From: Basidiobolus ranarum
Lineage: Eukaryota
Reading direction: 5' to 3'
DNA length: 33,637 bases
Assembly: GCA_040143965.1 (NCBI GenBank)
Contig: JASJQH010000072.1
Span: 1-33,637 of the forward strand
In this document: in pieces, positions 5,732 to 33,637 of the stretch
How the letters are laid out: each line of letters opens with the position of its first letter
Numbering within the stretch: position 1 is the first letter of the stretch
Translations under genes and position numbers: made by a program
The notes under the pieces: generated by a model
What the model saw: only the letters and a program-made list of their open reading frames with translations
Databases searched by the model: none
What the model was told of the DNA's origin: nothing

Positions 5732-7334
5732 ATGAATGGACAAGAGGAACCCAAAATTCCCCATAAAACTGAAGACGTGCAAACGATTTTAAAAGAGACT
5801 GAAGTGAATAACACTTCTAAAACAGTCGATTCTTCACAAAAAACCCTTGAAAGTAGTCAGGCTGAAACCAAATCTCAAACCACTGACCACGTAAATGGTG
5901 ACATTTTGTCGAACAGTAGTGTTCCGAATACTCCGGAGTTATCTAACTCTCAAATGACGCCATGTTCCTCTCGTGGTGGGTCTCCTAGTCCCTCTACAAA
6001 AGATTCTCTCTCAGTAAGTAAAATAAATCGAGTTCTCCTTGTGAACCACTTTTTGGAGCTAAGGGAATATATACTTTTAGGAGATAAGCGAAGATAGTGA
6101 TAGTGAACTGTCGGAAGCCAGTATTGGAGGCTCTGCTTCTTCTGATGAGAGCGGTAATTTACGCCTTTCGCCAATAATTGTCACAATATAGACACGTATT
6201 TATGTGAACTACCCCTCACCAATGGCTTTGTTCCATATAGATGCAGAAAAAATGTCAGTTACTGACGGTAGTGATTCTTCTGACGATGATAATGTCAAAT
6301 CACTCAAGCGTCTGCACCGCGACGGAATGAAACGACTCATAGAGTTGAACCAGGAATTTGAGACGTTAAAATCCAGGTTTCTAGCTCCTTACGCGTTACG
6401 AAATACTTTTCTCTACTCTAACACGTTATTCAGGTTAATGGAGTCCAAAATTGAGGATTTAGAGAATGAGAAGAAAGAAATATTGGATGGTGAACACCCA
6501 GAATACCGCGAACAACAAGCTCAACTAGAAGAGCGTTTAAGAAAGCGACGAAAGGTTGCCGAAATACGCAAAGAATATCGAAGCTTTGACATTCAAAATC
6601 AATATGATGGCGCCAAAAAACAAGCTACCGATACACTCATAGTAATCGAGAGTTTTACTGTGTTTACGAAATGAACTTCACCACTAATTCATCTTTGCAA
6701 CAAGGCAGAGAAAGCTATCCTTCGCCAATCATTCATGGACTTAATTCAACGAAAGAAGCGACTACTTCAAAAGGAATTCAATGCTCTAGAAGAACAACGT
6801 AATTTGATTTCCTCCAACTCGCCCTTATCCTTACCCTTATCCTTACCCTTACCCTTCATCGAGATACTCACCCATGTTCTCACCAAACTTTAGGAGAAGA
6901 ATCCAAGGTCTACGGTGGCGTATTCGTCAATCATTCATCAGCAGATATCCTTTTACTTCAATTTTATAAGCAATGATCACTGTTCTGGTTAGTCAATCTT
7001 GGTTAGTCAATCCTTAATCCGCTTACATCCCGCACCTTCAGGATTAAAAAGGCTAGAAGCTCAGCAAGATCTATCAGTTATGCGAATCTCATCGTTACTT
7101 AATACGGAGAACGAGGATGACATGTCTCAAGCGAATTCATACTCAGACCAGGAGCGTTCTCAAGACATGTTTGTAAGCTTCGTCAAGTCGCGAAACTTGG
7201 AATCATACCCGTGCTCCAGCTCACAAACTTAGGCTGAGAATCCATAGATACGAGGGCAGAGAAGGACTCGTATCAATTACAATCACAACCTCCATACCCT
7301 TCCTTTCCTCCCCTCTCCTCGCCTCCCCTATTAA
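5732..7334 (+). CDS. Sds3-like (Sin3/Rpd3L HDAC complex) coiled-coil protein; exons 5732-6013, 6081-6153, 6241-6376, 6434-6641, 6705-6798, 6894-6944, 7027-7172, last exon 7248-7334 (or 7233-7247)
   Basis: Acidic/Ser-rich N-terminus, then LNQEFETLKSRLMESKIEDLENEKKEILDGEHPEY...LEERLRKR (Sds3-like pattern) and a C-terminal GLKRLEAQQDL..M motif. Frame is continuous using GT-AG introns plus one AT-AC intron. The last exon is uncertain. Confidence 0.8.
6822..6856 (+). repeat. Intronic hexamer microsatellite (CCTTAY)n
   Basis: cccttatccttacccttatccttacccttaccctt lies within intron 6799-6893. Confidence 0.85.
6945..7026 (+). other. U12-type AT-AC intron in the Sds3-like gene
   Basis: 5' site ATATCCTTTT at 6945, branch TCCTTAAT at 7011-7018, AC at 7025-7026. 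Removal gives G|AT (Asp) and restores the frame. Confidence 0.85.
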
Positions 7335-10060: not shown

Positions 10061-11788
10061 TTAATAAAGTAGAGCATCCAAACTTCCAGCTTCTTGTTGT
10101 TCCTTGACGAACATTTCAAAGTAACTGTAGATGATAGTGACCGCTAAAAGAATACCAGTACCGGAGCCAATAGCACCTATGATAATAATTGTGTTAAGTA
10201 ATGAATGAAATCCTCCGCAATAACTTCTTAAACTTACCCATTAAATCAGCAGCTACTGAAAGAGTACCAATAAGAATACCTCCCAAGGTAGCAGCCAGAG
10301 GGATAGTCTTCTTCAAGACCTTATACATGGACTCATCGCGATACCCAGCCAATGTGACATTTTGATCTTTAAGTTGCTTAGCAACATCCTTGGGTGAGGA
10401 TCCAGAGACCTCAATCCAAGTCCGGGAGAACATGGCACAGGCGGAAAGCATAAATACAAGATACAATACGAAATGAATGGGATCTTTCATGGCATCAGTG
10501 AAATTATGGGGAGGGGTAAGATAATAGGCTAATCCACTAGTGGCAAAGAATTGGGAGGTTCCCTCATAGGGCTCCCAGACACCGAGTAAGCGAACAAGAA
10601 GGTTCTCAGGGAAACGGTTGTGAAGCATTTGGGAAATCATGAAGACGTTGGAGGTCAAGGCAGATTGAAGCATAATAGGCATGTTGGATGTGTAGAAAAG
10701 CTTAACGGGGAAGCTACCACGGAATCCGCGAACTCTGCTGTTCTTAATGGGAAGTTCAACTCTGAATCCTTGCAAGTAAATAACTGCACCGAAAACTGCG
10801 ATAGTAGCGAACAAATTCATAAGATTGGGCAAATTACTACGGTAGAGAGCCTCTGACAAAGCACGGACTTTGTTCTCACGAGTAAAGAGCAAATGGAAAG
10901 TGGCAATGATAGCACCTTCAAACTCGGGACCACGACCGGTGTTGACAGTAGTAGGAGCCAAAGCCTTCCAGATGATATTTTCACAAATGTTGGTGGCAAT
11001 GAACAAATTAATACCAGAGCCAAGGCCATAACCCTTTTGAAGCAACTCATCCAAAAGAATGACAATCATACCGGCGGTGAAAAGTTGAATAATGAGAAGC
11101 AAGCAAATACCAGCACCAAGGTCTTGAGGAGTACCATAAATACCGGTGAGAACGGATACGGTAGCTTGTCCGAAAGTAATCAGGATAGCGAATACTAATT
11201 TTGTAAATGAGTTAGCAACCCATTATTGACAACATCAATTCCCATCTGAAAAGATATGTAAAAAAATACGAACATTTTTGTGCACCATTGAATAATACTC
11301 TATCTTCTTTCAAAGAGTAGTCTACTTCGATGATATTCGCACCAGCCAACAGTTGCATAATCATTCCCGAAGTAATAATAGGTGTAATACCGTGCTCCAT
11401 GAGGGTACCTCTGTTGGAAGCCAAGATGACACGCATCCAGTACAGAGGATCGGAAGTATCAGCGGAAACGATACCATATAGAGGAATCTGTGAGCAGACC
11501 AAGAAAATGAAGAGTGTGATGGCAGTCCATAAGATCTTCTGCTTAAAAGGAATCTGTAAAGAAGGCGATTTTAGTATTATGTCAGTGGATAGATCCTTTG
11601 ACTGTAAACTTACCTTTCTGTCGGGGGCAGCAATTTCTGGCAACACAGCCATAAAAGGCCGAATCAAATGTAAGAACCTGACTATATTATAACAATGCAA
11701 GTGGTATGAGTAATGTGATGGCATGAAGAGTGCAAGTGATATGGCGAATATGCACAATAGATCACATAGGAGAATACATACACGACAT
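10061..11788 (-). CDS. SEC61: Protein transport protein Sec61 subunit alpha; exons 11782-11788, 11614-11681, 11274-11553, 10238-11194, 10061-10176
   Basis: [93 protein letters not shown]. Introns are canonical. Confidence 0.98.
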
Positions 11789-21825: not shown

Positions 21826-23615
21826 TGAGATTAATTTTTAGTAGAAGGGTTATCTAATTATAGCGCAAAAAGGAAGTGATGGGGGTTAGGTAAGTTAACT
21901 CAACACCGAGTGTTACCAGGTTATATATCAAGTGCAAGATTCCGTTACTAGATTTTCAAGTTTAAGAATCCCTTTGTCCGTCAACAAATAATCACTAGTG
22001 TTTCAAGCGGAAATTATTCGATGAAAATGTATATTTTACCTTAACAATGACATAGGAGATTTAGCGCTAGTTAGAATTATCATTTGTAACGAATGTTAGG
22101 ATTTATGTTAGGGGTAGGGTTAACTCAACGTCTATTTGTTTCATCGCAGAATGAGTTATAACAGAGTTGGTTATTCATTTACAAATACTATATAATCGGA
22201 TAATTTCCATACAAATGCTATATATATAAACGAAGGCAGAATTCCTTTATGCTTGTTATAGTATTGACATATATACCCCCAGATTAGACTTGTATGGTCA
22301 TGGTTCTAGCCTATGATTGATACCCTTTGATTGCTACCAGAATCCTTTCATGACAATTACCATGTGGACCGATTGTTATATTATATCTCCCATTGTTATT
22401 TTTACTCTCTACACTATACAATTTGATCAGTTAATCATGGATATCAACATCAATCAATTATGGGTATCATCAATTAATTATCGGCATCAGTAATTTATTA
22501 TAGGTATGAAAAATATAGATGCTTAAAAGCTTACATTCATCAATTAGTATTCTACTGAGAAAAAGGCTATCATTTATAACCTTACTCATGATAGCAAGTA
22601 GGTAGAATGAAGTAAGCAACAGTTGGCCGGAATCGTATCCATCGACTAACTGCAGTTCCAGCCCATACTAGACTGAAACAAACATAAATAACCCATGTAT
22701 ATATATAGCAAAGTCAAAGAAAATTCCATACCTCGGTCACTTGCTTTTTTTTCATGCGAGTAGGTTAGATGCATTGGGAAGAGAATCCTTGTAAGGCTTA
22801 ACAAGAACATGAGTTTAAGAACTCATTTGCCATTTGAAGCTTCATCTAAAGATCATTTGGGCTATCCATTTAGGCCATCCATTCGATTACTTAACTGCCA
22901 TCTAACTTGGTTCCTAAATAGAGTAAATATTTAGAGTCATTTGACGTTAGGTTTACTTATAAGGATATATGTGCACATCCCATAGTCAAAAGTTCGGATT
23001 TGATTTTACCGAGGATTCGAAATGGAGATGAATGTTTAGAAAAATCCACTGAGTTACTTGAACATATACGGGCTTTGGAATGCAAAATTACTTAGCAGAG
23101 ACTCAGAGGTGACATAGAAGTCATATCATATTGTCTTGAGCTTCACTGTCCATATCTTTATTGCCTGACTAGTGATACTTCTATTTGAATTTGGTATTGA
23201 ATTAGGAAATCTGTCAGTTATTATTCAGCGTGTCCGAAAAGATGCAACCGAATATAAACTTGGATCAATGGGTCACGGAAGGTTTCGGACCATTTGAAAA
23301 GTTGTATATTAGTACGTGTGTATATTGATATCGATTCCCATTGAAAAGCAATGGGCAAAGATAAGATCAACCGGAGAGAATGATTCTCTAGATTCAAATT
23401 CGAAATGATAAATGAACATCCTAGCTGTAATCGATAATGTCGAAAAGAGTGCAGGACTATTGTTATCGAATAAACCGGTGAGTAATTAACCGAGCTGGAA
23501 ACATATATATATGGCGACTAGTACTTTAGCTGGTTTCAATTATGCATTACCAATAGTTTATTCTCAGTTGAGCCCGTTTTCATCGTAATCTTCATTTTAC
23601 AACAATACACCTGCC

Positions 23616-25265
23616 ATGTCTAAAAAAGACATCAATTCTAACTACGTCAGCGAGGAGCATCTTAAGGAAGAGGGAGTGGAGGAGTACTCTGAACTAGAGG
23701 ATATCAGTAAATTGAAAAGGGTTGCTGATAAGATTCCTACTGCTGCTTGGCTTATTATCATCACCGAATTTTGCGAACGCTTTGCTTATTATGGTGGTTC
23801 AGCACCTTTTACCAACTATGTTCAGTTCCCTGCAGGAGATCCTAACCAGGCGGGTGCTCTAGATAAGGGCCAAGCTACCTCTACTGCCTTGAAGCAATTT
23901 TTCACTTTTTTCTGTTACTTTACGCCGTTGTTTGGTGCTATTATCTCTGATCAATATCTTGGCAAATTCAAGACAATCTTAATATTTTGCTCCATCTATA
24001 TGCTCGGATGGCTAATCTTAACGTTGACTTCTATTCCTCCTTCTCTTGCCGCGGGGGCTGGTTACCCAGGCTATATCATATCATTAATTATTATTGGCTT
24101 CGGCACAGGCGGTATTAAGCCTCTTGTTTCTCCTATGGCTGCTGACCAATATACTCAAAAGCATATTGATATACGTGTTATCAAAGGGGAACGGGTGGTT
24201 GTTGACCCTGCACTAAATACTCAACATTTATACAATTGGTTCTACTGGGCCATCAATGTTGGCTCCTTGATCGGTGGTGTTATTACTCCTCAACTAGAGC
24301 AGCATATTGGTTTTTGGGTAGCTTATGCAGTTCCGACTGCAATGTTCGGTATGGCCATTACAGTTTTCTACCTAGGCCGACACCGTTATGTCAAAGTTCC
24401 TCCTAGTGGCGAGTCTGCTTTGTTGAAGGCTGTAAAGTGCTTTAAATATAGCCAGAAACGCTATTCTCAATCTCCTATTAAACCCAGAACCATTCTCGAT
24501 GCTGGACTTTCCACATATGAAGGTGCACCTCCAGAGACGAGCCAAGACCTCGCCACCAAGACATGGGATGATCAGTTTATCAAAGATTTAAAACAATGCC
24601 TTATGGCATGCAAAATTTACATTCCCATTACTATCTACCAGGTGTCATACAATCAGATTACCTCGAATTTGATATCACAGGCTGCTGATATGGATCTTCC
24701 TCCTGATATTCCCAACGATCTGATCAATAACATCGATCCCATCGCATTGATTATTTTGATTCCTATCATGGATACGTTCGTGTATCCTTTCCTTCGACGC
24801 ATAAGATTGAACCCTCGTCCAATGGTTCGCATTACTTTGGGTTTTTTCTTTGGAGCGCTCGCAATGATGTCTTCTGCTCTAGTCCAGAATGAAATGTACA
24901 GGCGGAAAGATAACAATTTACCCAAAGTATCTGTCTGGCTACAAATCCCTGCCTATCTTCTTATTGCTATTTCTGAGATCTTTGCAAGTATCACCTCCAT
25001 CGAATATTCTTATACTCATGCCCCGGATTCTCTCAAAGGTCTTGTTTCTGCCTTCTCACTACTTCCCAACGCTGCTGCTGCATTGATTGGCATATTCCTG
25101 TCCCCTGTATCTAGAGATCCATATCTCACCTGGAACTACGCCTCTATTTCCATTGTTTGCTTCGTCTTTGGAATCGGTTTCTGGATCATATTCAGACATT
25201 ACGATGACCTTGATGATAAGTTAAAAGAGGAATATATGGAGGAAACAAAAGAACACTCTACATAA
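23616..25265 (+). CDS. PTR2: POT/PTR2 family proton-dependent oligopeptide transporter (MFS), 549 aa, intronless
   Basis: EFCERFAYYG (ExxERFxYYG), GTGGIKP, FYWAINVGS, WLQIPAY and EYSYTHAP motifs; about 12 hydrophobic segments. Confidence 0.96.
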   Translation: MSKKDINSNYVSEEHLKEEGVEEYSELEDISKLKRVADKIPTAAWLIIITEFCERFAYYGGSAPFTNYVQFPAGDPNQAGALDKGQATSTALKQFFTFFCYFTPLFGAIISDQYLGKFKTILIFCSIYMLGWLILTLTSIPPSLAAGAGYPGYIISLIIIGFGTGGIKPLVSPMAADQYTQKHIDIRVIKGERVVVDPALNTQHLYNWFYWAINVGSLIGGVITPQLEQHIGFWVAYAVPTAMFGMAITVFYLGRHRYVKVPPSGESALLKAVKCFKYSQKRYSQSPIKPRTILDAGLSTYEGAPPETSQDLATKTWDDQFIKDLKQCLMACKIYIPITIYQVSYNQITSNLISQAADMDLPPDIPNDLINNIDPIALIILIPIMDTFVYPFLRRIRLNPRPMVRITLGFFFGALAMMSSALVQNEMYRRKDNNLPKVSVWLQIPAYLLIAISEIFASITSIEYSYTHAPDSLKGLVSAFSLLPNAAAALIGIFLSPVSRDPYLTWNYASISIVCFVFGIGFWIIFRHYDDLDDKLKEEYMEETKEHST

Positions 25266-25945: not shown

Positions 25946-28305
25946 ATGAAACGTATTCATTTCCTTTTCTTTTTAGGAGTGATCAGTGGAAGGTTAGCGA
26001 CAGCCTATGGTCAAGTACAGAAAGATGGTAACCAGATAGCCATCACCCCGCCAGTTGAAATACCAACATCTGATGAAGTGTTAGAAGGTGATGATGAAGT
26101 CAAAAGTTGCGATTCACCAATATACTGTCCCGGCCCATTTCTTGATAGGATCCAACGAGCAAAGCTGTTTGATGATTCAAAGACATTTGTTGATCGAGTA
26201 ATTAACTACCATAACTCATTCTGATTCGGACCTACCCCTAACCCTAAATCCTGTACCCCTAGGGCACCAAGCGTCCTGTTAACGAAGTATTAACGGCATT
26301 CTACAAGCTACCCCGAAATGCAACTCGTGCGACATTAAAAAAGTTTATAGAAAAATATTTTGTAGACAATGAAAACGATCTAGTAACAACCGAACTCCCA
26401 GATTTTAATCCAAATCCGTCATTCCTCCGACGTATTAAAGATCAATATCTTAAAGGATTTGGTAGTTACGTTCATTCATTTTGGAAAACCCTCACTCGTA
26501 CTATGGCGCAAAAGCTACCGTGCGAGGGATGTGTAACCTCTCTCATCCAAATTCCAAGACCTTTCATCATTCCTGGAGGTCGATTTAAGGAGATCTATTA
26601 TTGGTATTAGCAACAAATATCATCAAATATATATCCTTTCCTCATTAGTCCATTTCCTAACACTTATTTCCTTTTTTGAAACATAGGGTAAGGGCCAGGG
26701 TTCTCTTGATCAATACTTCCCCACTTATTATTGCTGACCAAATCTCGAGATATCTAGGACACATACTTTGTATTGGAGGGTCTGCTACTCGGAGAACTGA
26801 ATACAATATCCAAGGACATGATTCTCAACTTTCTGGATATTGTGGATAAATATGGGTTCATGCGTAAGTTGGTCGTAAGTTCGTAAATACCGGTCACTCA
26901 ACTAATCACTCTTCTGGCCGTAGCAAATGGGGCTCGTGTTTACTATCTAAATAGATCACAGCCCCCACTGTTAACTCAAATGGTGAAGATATACATGGAC
27001 AAAACGAAGGATATTGACTTGCTAATGCGTGCTCTTCCCACCCTGGACAAGGAATATCATTACTGGAAATCTAAGCACTCGGTTAAAGTCCAGGATCGCC
27101 TTGGCACAATTCATGAGCTGACACGTTATAACGTTGATAATAAGTATCCACGACCAGAATCGTACCATGAAGACATTATCACTGTGGAATACGCTGGGTT
27201 TAACGTATCCAAGCAAAAAGAACTCTATGCAGATATTGCCACGGGTGCTGAAACTGGTAACAATCCTATGTATATATATCTTGACGTTGCACAGTACCAT
27301 TGAACTTCTTCATCCAGGTTGGGATTACAGCACACGATTTGTAACACTGATACCGAAAGGTGATGAAGCACCCGAAGAAATCCTTCGCACTTTAAATACA
27401 AGAATGGTCGTTCCTGTAGACCTCAACTCGATTATGTATATGAATGAACAAGCCCTATCTGATTTCCATAGGATCATCGCAAATAGTCGTATGAGTGGAA
27501 AGAGTAAGAATTTGGAAAACTATTATCGAGTAGCAGCCCAGCAACGTCGTCGGTCAGTTCTAGCCCTGTTATGGGATGAAACCGACCGCGTCTTTTACGA
27601 TTATAACCTTTCAAGTCATGCAATTGAGAAATCACTTACCCCGGCCAACTACTGGCCCTTCTGGTACGTTATTCAAGATATTTTCATTTTGATGTTGAGA
27701 TATGTAGGTGAATTTTGGAATATAGGGCTGGGATATTTCCGGATGACTTTTTCAAGAGACCGGCAGATATTATCAAAACTTTTGAAGCGGTCGAGGACTA
27801 TGGTGAGGAATATCCTGGCGGTATTCCGATTACAATGACTGCTAGTACTTTACAATGGGACTTCCCCAACTCATGGGTAATGTTGATCTCATTTTTCTCT
27901 CCCAAAGAACCGTTCTAATGGGATTTGGTCACACAGCCGCCACTTGTATTTGTAGTACTCAAGGCAATAACCGAAGTTGAGAGGCGGTTAACGTTTGGTC
28001 AGCTTCGAGAAAGATTACATCAATTGGGACTTACAATAGCCCAGGTTCTTATCAACTCTACCTACTGTGGCTGGCGACTGACTGGTGGTGAGATTCCTGG
28101 AATACTGACGAAGCTACGGAATGTCACTGATAGCGGTAAACTTTTCGAAAAATATGATGCCACTAAGCTAGGTATTCCAGGTGGCGGTGGTGAATACACT
28201 GTACAGGATGGCTTCGGTTGGACTAATGGTGTGACTCTGTGGACATTGAATCAATTCGGAGATGAGCTCCAGGCTCCACAATCCTGCGTAGAAATTTCCA
28301 GGTAA
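25946..28305 (+). CDS. Secreted GH37 alpha,alpha-trehalase; exons 25946-26197, 26263-26603, 26687 (1 nt), 26758-26863, 26924-27256, 27318-27663, 27726-27876, 27937-28305
   Basis: Signal peptide; [78 protein letters not shown]...[17 protein letters not shown]. Confidence 0.96.
26687..26687 (+). other. Single-nucleotide exon (G) of the trehalase gene
   Basis: ACATAG|G|GTAAGG lies between two complete introns (26604-26686 with CCTAAC branch; 26688-26757 with GCTGAC branch). It is required for TG|G|GAC = Trp-Asp. Confidence 0.85.
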
Positions 28306-29075: not shown

Positions 29076-30392
29076 ATGGCTGGTACTGTTAAGCTAACTA
29101 GTGTTGTAAGAACTCAAGCCCGTAACTTTAGAATTATTCCCAGTAATGTTGCTTCACTCAGAACCTCTAGGGTTATAACCTCAACCCATACTTGTCTTCC
29201 AAAAACTCCTCATACTGTTTCACGCGCCTCTGTATTCTCTATTGCTCCTCGTTTACGTCATCCTCAAACGTATGAGTTAACTGAAGATCGTTCAATACAT
29301 GCTTTACCAGCTCATTCTATTTTACGAAACTTTCCCCTTGATCATTCTGAACCTTGGTCCGAAAACAAAGATGCCTTATTTAGTCTATGCGATAAGTCAG
29401 CTCCAGTAAACAAACACTCTTATACTTTTACTCATGGTGCTTCAGGAATACCAAAAAATCCAACCGCGGCTATGTCAGATGATATAAATTACTATAGCAT
29501 TGGTTGTGGTGAAGATTCATATTTTAGAAGACATGACGCTCTTGGGGTAGCTGATGGAGTTGGCGGTTGGAAAGGAAAGAAAGGCAAGTGTTTATTATTG
29601 CATACTTTTCATAAAGAAAGTTATTAACTTGCTGAGTTACATTTAAACAGGAGCTAATCCTGCCCTTTTTTCACGAAAATTGATGCATTATGCATATATG
29701 GAGCTCGAGAAATATGATAGTATTGAAGATGAACTTTTCTTTAACTACTATGATGTAAGCCCCACCAAAATCCTTGAAAAAAGTTACGAATTACTAAATA
29801 GAGACGTTACTAAAGAGGTATAAATCAATAATGATATAGTCACTGCAGAGATAATTGCTAAAGTGTCTAATGTACGTAGGGTATTCTTGGGTCCAGCACA
29901 GCATGTATCGTTGTACTTCGAGATGATGAGCTACGCATTGCCAACCTTGGTGATTGCGGCGTATCAGTGATTCGTCAGGGAGATTTCGTTTTTCGTACTG
30001 AAGAGCAACAGCATTGCTTTAACTATCCATACCAATTGGGAACTGGTTCTTTAGATCGACCATCAGACGCCCAAGCATTCACAGTTAAAGTACAAAAAGG
30101 AGACATAGTAATATTGGGAAGCGACGGGATTTACGATAACCTATCTGATGAAGATATTCTTGATATCGTTTTGCGCAGCACTTCTAGTTCACTCGTGAAC
30201 ATTAACCCCCAAAAGATAAGCGATGCCCTTGCTAAACAAGCCAAGATTGTTAGTGAGGACTCCACCTTCCCAAGCCCATTTCAGGACAGAGCTATGCAAG
30301 AAGGATTCTATTACCAAGGAGGGAAGATTGACGACATCAGTGTGTTGGTTGCTCTAGTAGTTGATGTTGAAGAATCCATTGAGGAGTTGTAA
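29076..30392 (+). CDS. PTC7: PP2C-family phosphatase PTC7 homologue (mitochondrial-type N-terminus); exons 29076-29583, 29651-29817, 29880-30392
   Basis: GEDSYF, GVADGVGGW, GSSTAC, ANLGDCG, EQQHCFNYPYQLG, GSDGIYDNL, GGKIDDISV. The first intron is GC-AG. Confidence 0.93.
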
Positions 30393-32256: not shown

Positions 32257-33141
32257 TCAAGCATGGGACATATCGACGGTAGTTGGCAGAGTCATTTCGT
32301 TCGCCTTGGCTTTCAACCTCAAATCTATACCATCCATCCACCTCACAACACTAACCAAGTGTCGATTTAATATGTGAGGAGTATGGGCTACGCTTTGATA
32401 TTGATCATCTTGCTCACTTTCCAAGTTGGTAATTGCTCCTGGGTATTTCTCTAGCATGGCGGCTCTAACTAGACTGAAATATATACAATACATCGCGTAT
32501 GTAATGAAAAGTGATAGAAGAACATCCACAGTAAAGTGAAGACGAGAAGCAATGATGGTATAGAGCGCTGCTATGGCGTGCAATAAGGCGTATAGTTTGA
32601 ACCACTTGACACGAGTGTAGATATTCCACATGATAACCGATGAAGTAACAATCATCGTATGTCCAGAGTAAATGTTATCGGTACATGCTTTATCACTTCC
32701 TATAATCATGTAGGTAGCTACCTTCATCATTTCACCAAAGGAATTGGCCACCACTGGTACACAGTCTTTTGTGGGTGGCAAAGTAGTGGTGATAATAGTG
32801 AAAGCACGATAGAAGTACAGTAAACCTGTCAACCAAAATACTCGTCGCCAAAATATTATGATCTTGGGAAGTCTACGAGAAATAATGGTCAGAGCAACCA
32901 GAGTGATGCCGAATAAAGACATTACTAAAGCGTCAGCGATGGAGAAAGTAGAGAGAAAGGGAAAAGCTTCGAAACCTAAATCTCTAAGTGGATTTTTGGT
33001 GTCACTACCTAACCACCGTTTGTCAGAGAGTTGTTGAAATAGGGTCATAAAGTACGCAACTACAATGAGAAACACCGCAGAGTAAATTAGACGAGCTACT
33101 TCGGAATTAAGGAAACGTTTTGCGGATTTTTCGCTTTTCAT
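32257..33141 (-). CDS. Sphingomyelin-synthase family (PAP2_C) ceramide phosphotransferase, 294 aa, intronless
   Basis: PLRDLGF, YFYRAFTIITTTLPP, CTDNIYSGHT and HFTVDV correspond to SMS motifs D1-D4, with catalytic H/H/D. Multiple transmembrane segments. Confidence 0.9.
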   Translation of the reverse strand: MKSEKSAKRFLNSEVARLIYSAVFLIVVAYFMTLFQQLSDKRWLGSDTKNPLRDLGFEAFPFLSTFSIADALVMSLFGITLVALTIISRRLPKIIIFWRRVFWLTGLLYFYRAFTIITTTLPPTKDCVPVVANSFGEMMKVATYMIIGSDKACTDNIYSGHTMIVTSSVIMWNIYTRVKWFKLYALLHAIAALYTIIASRLHFTVDVLLSLFITYAMYCIYFSLVRAAMLEKYPGAITNLESEQDDQYQSVAHTPHILNRHLVSVVRWMDGIDLRLKAKANEMTLPTTVDMSHA

Positions 33142-33637
33142 CGTGTTGGAAGGTTAAAAATAATTGGTGACTGGTTGATATGCAGGTTGTTTGTTTCTAA
33201 AATGTGAGAGTTTTGGAACCGGCCAGTTGTTGAACCGGCCTTGTTAACTATATACGTACTAAAGGGCGATATTAAGGGGCGCTGTTAAGAACAGGCTATA
33301 ACTCAAGGTGCTTATAGAAAGGTGTGGATTTCGTAATTTGAGCGGCGTACCACGATATAAAGCGATTTCAGAGAAAAGGGGTGATATCAGTTTTTTGATT
33401 AGAAACAGGAGTAGAAACGATGCTATCAATGTGTCGTACAAGAGTACAAAAGATCCAAACTTACATAATTAGATATACATAGTTCTTTATGTACTGACAA
33501 TATCGACAACCAGCCAATCAAGGCTACTACCTTGTTTATTTGTCTAGGATGATTATATTAGGCGTCAACTATATTTAGCAAAGATGAATTCCAAGCATGA
33601 ATGGAAGCGAGTGAATGGAAGCGAGTGAAAATGGTAT

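Follow-up and report, generated by a model that had tools for sequence, protein, structure and literature searches.

A candidate one-nucleotide exon inside the signature motif of a GH37 trehalase gene of Basidiobolus ranarum

One-nucleotide exons are already known from Arabidopsis, Fusarium and Coprinopsis, and the trehalase gene of the fungus Basidiobolus ranarum considered here would, by its sequence, add a further example. According to the available text of the cited papers, the CYP621A P450 genes of Fusarium have a one-G exon within AGGGT, which is confirmed by 18 RNA reads and lies inside a 139-nucleotide (nt) intron, compared to a median intron length of 56 nt (Nelson and Syed, 2026, PMC12940212). 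The APC11 gene of Arabidopsis has a constitutive 1-nt exon between two GT–AG introns, and the authors argue for intron definition, with the introns removed in turn (Guo and Liu, 2015, PMC4674806); the same paper cites recursive splicing, which uses AG|GT ratchet points. Thirteen one-nucleotide exons in 13 genes are listed in the long-read annotation of Coprinopsis cinerea, where omitted micro-exons are reported to break gene models (PMC12230235). A related arrangement is the stwintron, a fungal intervening region removed by two consecutive U2 splicing reactions, the outcome depending on a single G at the joint (2017, PMC5587772). The gene studied here is located on contig JASJQH010000072.1 of B. 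ranarum (assembly GCA_040143965.1), of which positions 1–33,637 were analyzed (33,637 nt, hereinafter the window). The original prediction of its one-nucleotide exon, made from the letters of this window, had called such exons very rarely documented; this is a fair description, but they are already in print, fungi included (PMC12940212, PMC12230235). The exon of the trehalase gene was not found in the literature searched on one-nucleotide exons and Basidiobolus introns.

The trehalase gene occupies positions 25946–28305 of the plus strand, from ATG to stop, and its model comprises eight exons (1,899 bases, 632 codons) without an internal stop. Exon 2 (26263–26603) ends with …GAG ATC TAT TAT TG, the last two bases being the start of the Trp codon of a conserved motif, and is followed by GTATTA; reading through position 26603 yields TGG TAT TAG, that is, a stop two codons on. 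Exon 4 (26758–26863), which ends with GFM, starts with GAC ACA TAC TTT, opening with the motif Asp, and is preceded by ATATCTAG. If 26603 is joined directly to 26758, the frame is shifted and a stop is encountered 16 codons past the Trp. The gap between these two exons (26604–26757) is 154 nt long and contains a lone G at position 26687 in the context ACATAG-G-GTAAGG (AG-G-GTAAGG at 26685–26693). We consider it quite probable that this G is included in the mRNA as a one-nucleotide exon (exon 3, plus strand) and that this is the real structure of the gene. The G would complete the Trp codon TGG as its third base, and its inclusion, the one way found of keeping YYWD in frame, gives an open frame of 632 amino acids (aa) over the eight exons. 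The three-G form of the predicted mRNA junction is TATTATTGGGACACA, and the two-G form, with the G skipped, is TATTATTGGACACA.

The lone G divides the gap into two halves. The upstream one, intron A (26604–26686, plus strand, 83 nt, phase 2), has the donor TTG|GTATTA and the acceptor TTTTTTGAAACATAG|G, a G+C content of 28% and a pyrimidine run ahead of the AG. The downstream one, intron B (26688–26757, plus strand, 70 nt, phase 0), has the donor AGG|GTAAGG and the acceptor ATATCTAG|GAC. Candidate branch sites, identified as motif matches only, are CCTAAC at 26656–26661 in intron A and GCTGAC at 26733–26738 in intron B (both on the plus strand), whose branch A precedes the AG by 26 and 20 nt, respectively; for comparison, the CTRAC-to-AG distances in three of the other introns of this gene are 21, 18 and 18 nt. 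All these features (the exon ends, the read-through TAG, the frameshift upon direct joining, the lone G, the 83- and 70-nt halves and the branch motifs) had been pointed out in the original prediction and are confirmed in position, as is the restoration of YYWD by the G, for which a complete eight-exon frame of 632 aa has now been obtained.

We enumerated every GT/GC…AG pair in the region 26500–26830 that joins both frames without a stop. Seven single GT/GC–AG introns are in frame and free of stops, and all seven delete a part or the whole of the motif PGGRFxExYYWDxY. GT dinucleotides within 26687–26757 are found only at 26688 and 26700, and therefore the choice is between a 1-nt and a 13-nt exon. 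The structural reading put forward in the original prediction best explains these data, as no single canonical intron keeps the motif and the rest of the gene is intact; the 13-nt in-frame option, considered below, had been overlooked there.

The exon model was built from tblastn searches of two Basidiobolus proteins, P0001 and P0003, against the window. P0001 is the 636-aa “hypothetical protein K7432_002632 [Basidiobolus ranarum]”, the single database protein to which the translation of 26263–26601 is 100% identical, and the product of our model coincides with it except that WVRARD is replaced by WD. The family assignment is supported by the match of P0001 to the Pfam domain PF01204 (Trehalase), with an E-value of 1.7e-128 and 430.2 bits at a cut-off of 21, and by its best matches in PDB, which are trehalases (7e9u, E-value 2.5e-73; 2jf4, E-value 4.9e-70). 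The next relatives over exon 2 are two trehalases of Basidiobolus meristosporus CBS 931.73 (83 and 78%) and a second trehalase of B. ranarum (82%), while beyond Basidiobolus this exon matches insect, nematode and Syncephalis trehalases at 35–47%. RNA-Seq reads of B. meristosporus CBS 931.73 were aligned in a published study (PMC7466969). Among longer proteins, the only Basidiobolus ones retrieved in the exon 2 search are these four, each of them in a single-member cluster without an assembly-derived copy. The other exons of the model, all on the plus strand, are exon 1 (25946–26197), exon 5 (26924–27256), exon 6 (27318–27663), exon 7 (27726–27876) and exon 8 (27937–28305).

Five signature motifs are listed for the glycoside hydrolase family 37 (GH37), the first of them being PGGRFXEXY[G/Y]WD[S/T]Y (PMC10969515, available text). 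All five, including EKYD and the motifs with the catalytic Asp and Glu, are present in the translation of our model, and motif 1 is whole only if G26687 is included. Judged by these sequence features, the gene product is a member of the GH37 trehalase family, and the encoded enzyme is predicted to be active.

The adjacency of the motif Trp and Asp was assessed in two sets of trehalases. The first one comes from a metagenome scan with P0003, which gave 573 relatives, the best 80 loci being kept; as these loci were fetched by six peptide patterns, one of which is FKEIYYWD, this set is biased toward the motif. The second set comprises 15 non-Basidiobolus proteins retrieved by exon 2 alone. In all 80 metagenomic loci (best 80 of 573) the Asp follows the Trp immediately and there is no gap to either side; the two residues are likewise adjacent in 15 of the 15 proteins. 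Moreover, the four residues VRAR of P0001 stand opposite a four-column gap in both PDB alignments shown. These data agree with the initial claim that YYWD is a conserved GH37 motif, as W and D are adjacent in all non-Basidiobolus trehalases examined.

The four Basidiobolus trehalases form two pairs, one comprised of P0001, encoded by the gene studied here, and P0002 from B. meristosporus, and the other, of the B. ranarum paralogue P0004 and P0003 from B. meristosporus. At the junction the protein models read YYW-VRAR-DTYF in P0001, YYW-YLLMTFILCL-DTYF in P0002, IIPG-VTNLCNLA-DTYF in P0004, where GRFKEIYYW is lost, and YYWDTYF in P0003. Hence three of the four models, from two species, two paralogues and two independent assemblies, are abnormal exactly at the junction, and their fillers are unrelated to each other. 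Judging from the sequences, such unrelated fillers are what gene predictors yield when forced across an out-of-phase junction, and since the abnormal models come from two assemblies, they make an isolated assembly error or a private pseudogene less likely. Moreover, the W-Y of P0002 (TGG TAY) fits a TG|GTAY donor like that of the window, P0001 and its B. meristosporus counterpart P0002 are 86% identical, and the exon directly after the junction is near-identical between both species. The deposited model of the gene is probably wrong inside the GH37 motif, and so, probably, are those of two of its three Basidiobolus relatives.

A different peculiarity is seen in P0003, where a 33-residue stretch (residues approximately 305–337, corresponding to 27188–27317 of the window) replaces 18 residues. 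This stretch aligns to another reading frame of the end of exon 5 in the window and to the following intron, which suggests either a further error of the model or an indel in the B. meristosporus assembly.

The lengths of introns A and B are close to the local norm. The other five introns of the trehalase gene are 65, 60, 61, 62 and 60 nt long, and two hand-checked introns of a downstream PP2C-like gene are 67 and 62 nt long. By the standard of these two genes, introns A and B (83 and 70 nt) are near normal, whereas an undivided 154-nt intron would be approximately 2.5 times the norm. All seven donors of the model start with GTA (GTAATT, GTATTA, GTAAGG, GTAAGT, GTAACA, GTACGT and GTAATG).

The probability of finding such an arrangement by chance was estimated by shuffling the interior of the 154-nt gap 100,000 times with its composition preserved and with both halves required to be at least 45 nt long. 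AGGGT in this position is observed in 0.74% of shuffles, AGGGT with an A after the GT (that is, A at +3), in 0.20%, and AGGGTA with an upstream CTRAY 10–45 nt before the AG, in 0.04%. The numbers of sites expected in the 64 allowed positions, based on window-wide frequencies on both strands, are 0.05 for AGGGT, 0.016 for AGGGTA and 0.004 for AGGGTAAG. In the entire window AGGGTAAG is observed four times, compared to 0.81 expected. Three of these four copies (6830–6855, minus strand) fall within an imperfect hexamer repeat at 6822–6856 formed by CCCTTA/CCTTAC units.

A second Trp codon of the gene is interrupted as well, in the form TG|…|G. The intron responsible (27664–27725, CTG|GTACGT…ATATAG|GGC) is an ordinary one of 62 nt in phase 2, and its boundaries are built like those of intron A.

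If the G is indeed an exon, the 154 bases would be two abutting U2-type GT–AG introns of 83 and 70 nt around G26687. Intron definition is usual for short fungal introns, and with its own donor, CTRAC-like branch site and AG each of the two would be recognized across the intron. Removal of both would produce an mRNA with …TAT TAT TGG GAC ACA…, restoring the GH37 signature and the frame of the remaining five exons. Pairing of U1 at the donor of intron B (–3 to +6, 26685–26693) would cover the AG of intron A; as the donor of intron B overlaps this AG, the introns are probably removed one after the other, not together. Pairing of the donor at 26604 with the branch site of intron B would lead to skipping of the G and loss of the frame. 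The original prediction assumed ordered splicing and a switch-off of the enzyme by such skipping; skipping would indeed shift the frame, but its occurrence and regulatory use are hypothetical.

It is tempting to go further and to suggest that the one-G exon is old and stable, being common to both paralogues of at least two Basidiobolus species and predating the duplication, that it is the first one in early-diverging fungi, and that the weak upstream donor lets the cell vary the skipping of the G, thereby controlling trehalose breakdown. We regard this extension, taken as a whole, as rather doubtful.

Several observations weigh against the one-nucleotide exon. With four of nine matches to CAG|GTAAGT, GTATTA of intron A is the weakest donor in the gene, and the pyrimidine tract of intron B is poor. 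The evidence that the abnormal protein models provide for a conserved AG-G-GT is indirect. The Ala (GCN) that precedes the Asp in P0004 misfits an AG located directly before GAC, unless this paralogue has a micro-exon of its own, and the anomaly of P0004 may have another cause. The metagenome scan for DNA of relatives produced no Basidiobolus-like locus, the best 80 of 573 having at most 36% identity, and the exon 2 search for short, possibly transcript-derived proteins (62–198 aa) gave two candidates and no match. Finally, the 13-nt exon is a second in-frame solution, with GT–AG ends.

This second solution is that of the public annotation, in which intron A is followed by a 13-nt exon (26687–26699, plus strand; G GTA AGG GCC AGG, encoding (W)VRAR) and, from the donor GTTCTC at 26700, by a 58-nt intron (26700–26757), so that the junction would be TATTATTG + GGTAAGGGCCAGG + GACACA with VRAR between W and D. 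It has the deposited model on its side, as P0001 does read YYWVRARDTYF. Still, GTTCTC lacks the A at +3 found in seven of the seven donors of the gene, has three of nine matches to CAG|GTAAGT, and would have to outcompete GTAAGG located 12 nt upstream. VRAR would be an insertion inside motif 1 seen in none of the 80 loci, 15 proteins and aligned solved structures, and the fillers of the other Basidiobolus models are unrelated to it. The 13-nt exon is regarded as a prediction artefact, and we consider it quite improbable that the annotation is right. The out-of-phase exons could also be taken at face value: if the mRNA junction is truly out of phase, the gene would be an inactive copy, either a young pseudogene or a gene spliced mostly from 26603 to 26758 with the transcript degraded. 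Direct joining uses a canonical GT and AG and shifts the frame, and with the second B. ranarum paralogue (P0004) the loss might be tolerable. All other exons are open, however, and the five GH37 motifs are whole; moreover, as the B. meristosporus counterpart is anomalous at the same spot at 86% identity, the break would predate the split of the species without further decay, and the exon after the junction is near-identical between them. An inactive copy thus seems unlikely.

A loss of one base from a G run at the donor or acceptor during assembly would account for the phase as well, the true structure then being a single in-phase intron of approximately 154 nt. However, these G runs are only two bases long, and the 1.9-kb coding sequence of the trehalase, the PTR2 frame of 558 aa and the PP2C-like gene are free of other frame problems. 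The intron would be approximately 2.5 times longer than the local norm, a perfect AG-G-GTAAG between two halves that each have a branch site would be a coincidence with a probability of about 1% or less, and an anomaly at this junction is also seen in models of another species, which was assembled independently. Such an assembly error appears very improbable. The frame might also be restored in some other way, by a non-canonical splice that keeps one G (TA–AG or GT–TA ends), a U12-type or nested twin intron, a –1 ribosomal slip after TGG, or RNA editing. Of these, the U12 option draws on ATATCCTT, which is present inside intron A at 26631–26638 and which we take to be the consensus donor of U12-type AT–AC introns; the consensus of U12-type donors is RTATCCTT. 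This element is located after the in-frame stop and away from the exon edge, and with 11 occurrences of RTATCCTT in the window on both strands, i.e., about 0.025 expected per 154 nt, it is probably there by chance. The region 26590–26770 folds no better than shuffled sequences (minimum free energy –21.9 kcal/mol, weaker than in shuffles, z +1.68), and no RNA structure was found in it. Altogether, this group of explanations seems extremely improbable, and a one-nucleotide exon between two complete introns remains the preferred reading.

Several specific candidates from this group were rejected, non-canonical TA–AG or GT–TA ends among them. As regards a U12-type intron, the donors at the boundaries are GTATTAGC and GTAAGGGC, and GTATTAGC misfits RTATCCTT. 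A stwintron would require one intron to break up a splice signal of the other, whereas here both have intact signals of their own and the intervening G would stay in the mRNA. For a –1 ribosomal slip, no slippery heptamer precedes TGG. Downstream of ATATCCTT we also observe TTTCCTAAC at 26653–26661. Basidiobolus, according to the available text, is covered in two surveys of minor introns.

As for the neighboring genes, the PP2C-like gene downstream has an apparent 67-nt GC–AG intron at 29584–29650 (AAAG|GCAAGT…AAACAG|GA), which together with a 62-nt GT–AG intron (29818–29879) gives an open frame through GVADGVGGWKGKKGANPALFS. The window also contains an uninterrupted 558-aa frame of a POT/PTR2 transporter (23589–25265), a SecY/Sec61-alpha exon (10194–11222, minus strand) and a PAP2-family frame (32257–33153, minus strand), which have no evident link to the trehalase.

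If RNA data confirm it, the exon described here would add an early-diverging fungus and a glycoside hydrolase to the few documented cases of one-nucleotide exons. In that case, AGGGT shared with Fusarium would support a G between AG and GT as the preferred solution for an intron inside an invariant motif. A practical rule for annotation also follows: where conserved exons are one base out of phase and the intron between them is about twice the usual length, one should look for AG-N-GT.

The comparison with the systems introduced above relies on the available text of the respective papers. The trehalase gene and the CYP621A genes have in common AGGGT, an exon consisting of a G, its location in a conserved protein motif, a one-base phase mismatch, and a fungal host; moreover, in both of them automatic annotation fails and the combined intron exceeds the median length by a factor of more than two. 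They differ in the evidence, as the Fusarium exon is seen in RNA reads from two species and in 20 aligned orthologues (the figure shows 24 sequences), while the trehalase exon is predicted from the sequence of the gene. In the Fusarium P450 genes the G occupies the middle of a Gly codon, and in the trehalase it would be the third base of a Trp codon; the lineages are also different, Fusarium belonging to Ascomycota and Basidiobolus being an early-diverging fungus. APC11 resembles the trehalase gene in its 1-nt exon, two GT–AG introns and proposed successive removal; it is, however, a plant gene validated by reporter constructs, and the identity of its single base is irrelevant to splicing, whereas in the trehalase only G gives Trp. 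Coprinopsis, like Basidiobolus, has one-nucleotide exons in a fungus, in this case from Basidiomycota and in a genome-wide catalogue derived from full-length transcripts, and the likeness is to the catalogue, not exon by exon.

The stwintron shares with the trehalase gap two U2 reactions and a pivotal single G, but in it the external intron has one of its signals split by the internal intron and every base is removed, while in the trehalase gene both introns would be complete and one base kept. At ratchet points no base is retained, and the introns concerned are very long ones of animals. Recursive splicing at such points is similar to what we propose for the trehalase gene in that an acceptor adjoins a donor inside a long intervening region that is removed stepwise; the trehalase gene differs from it in that one base would be kept and the introns are just 83 and 70 nt long.

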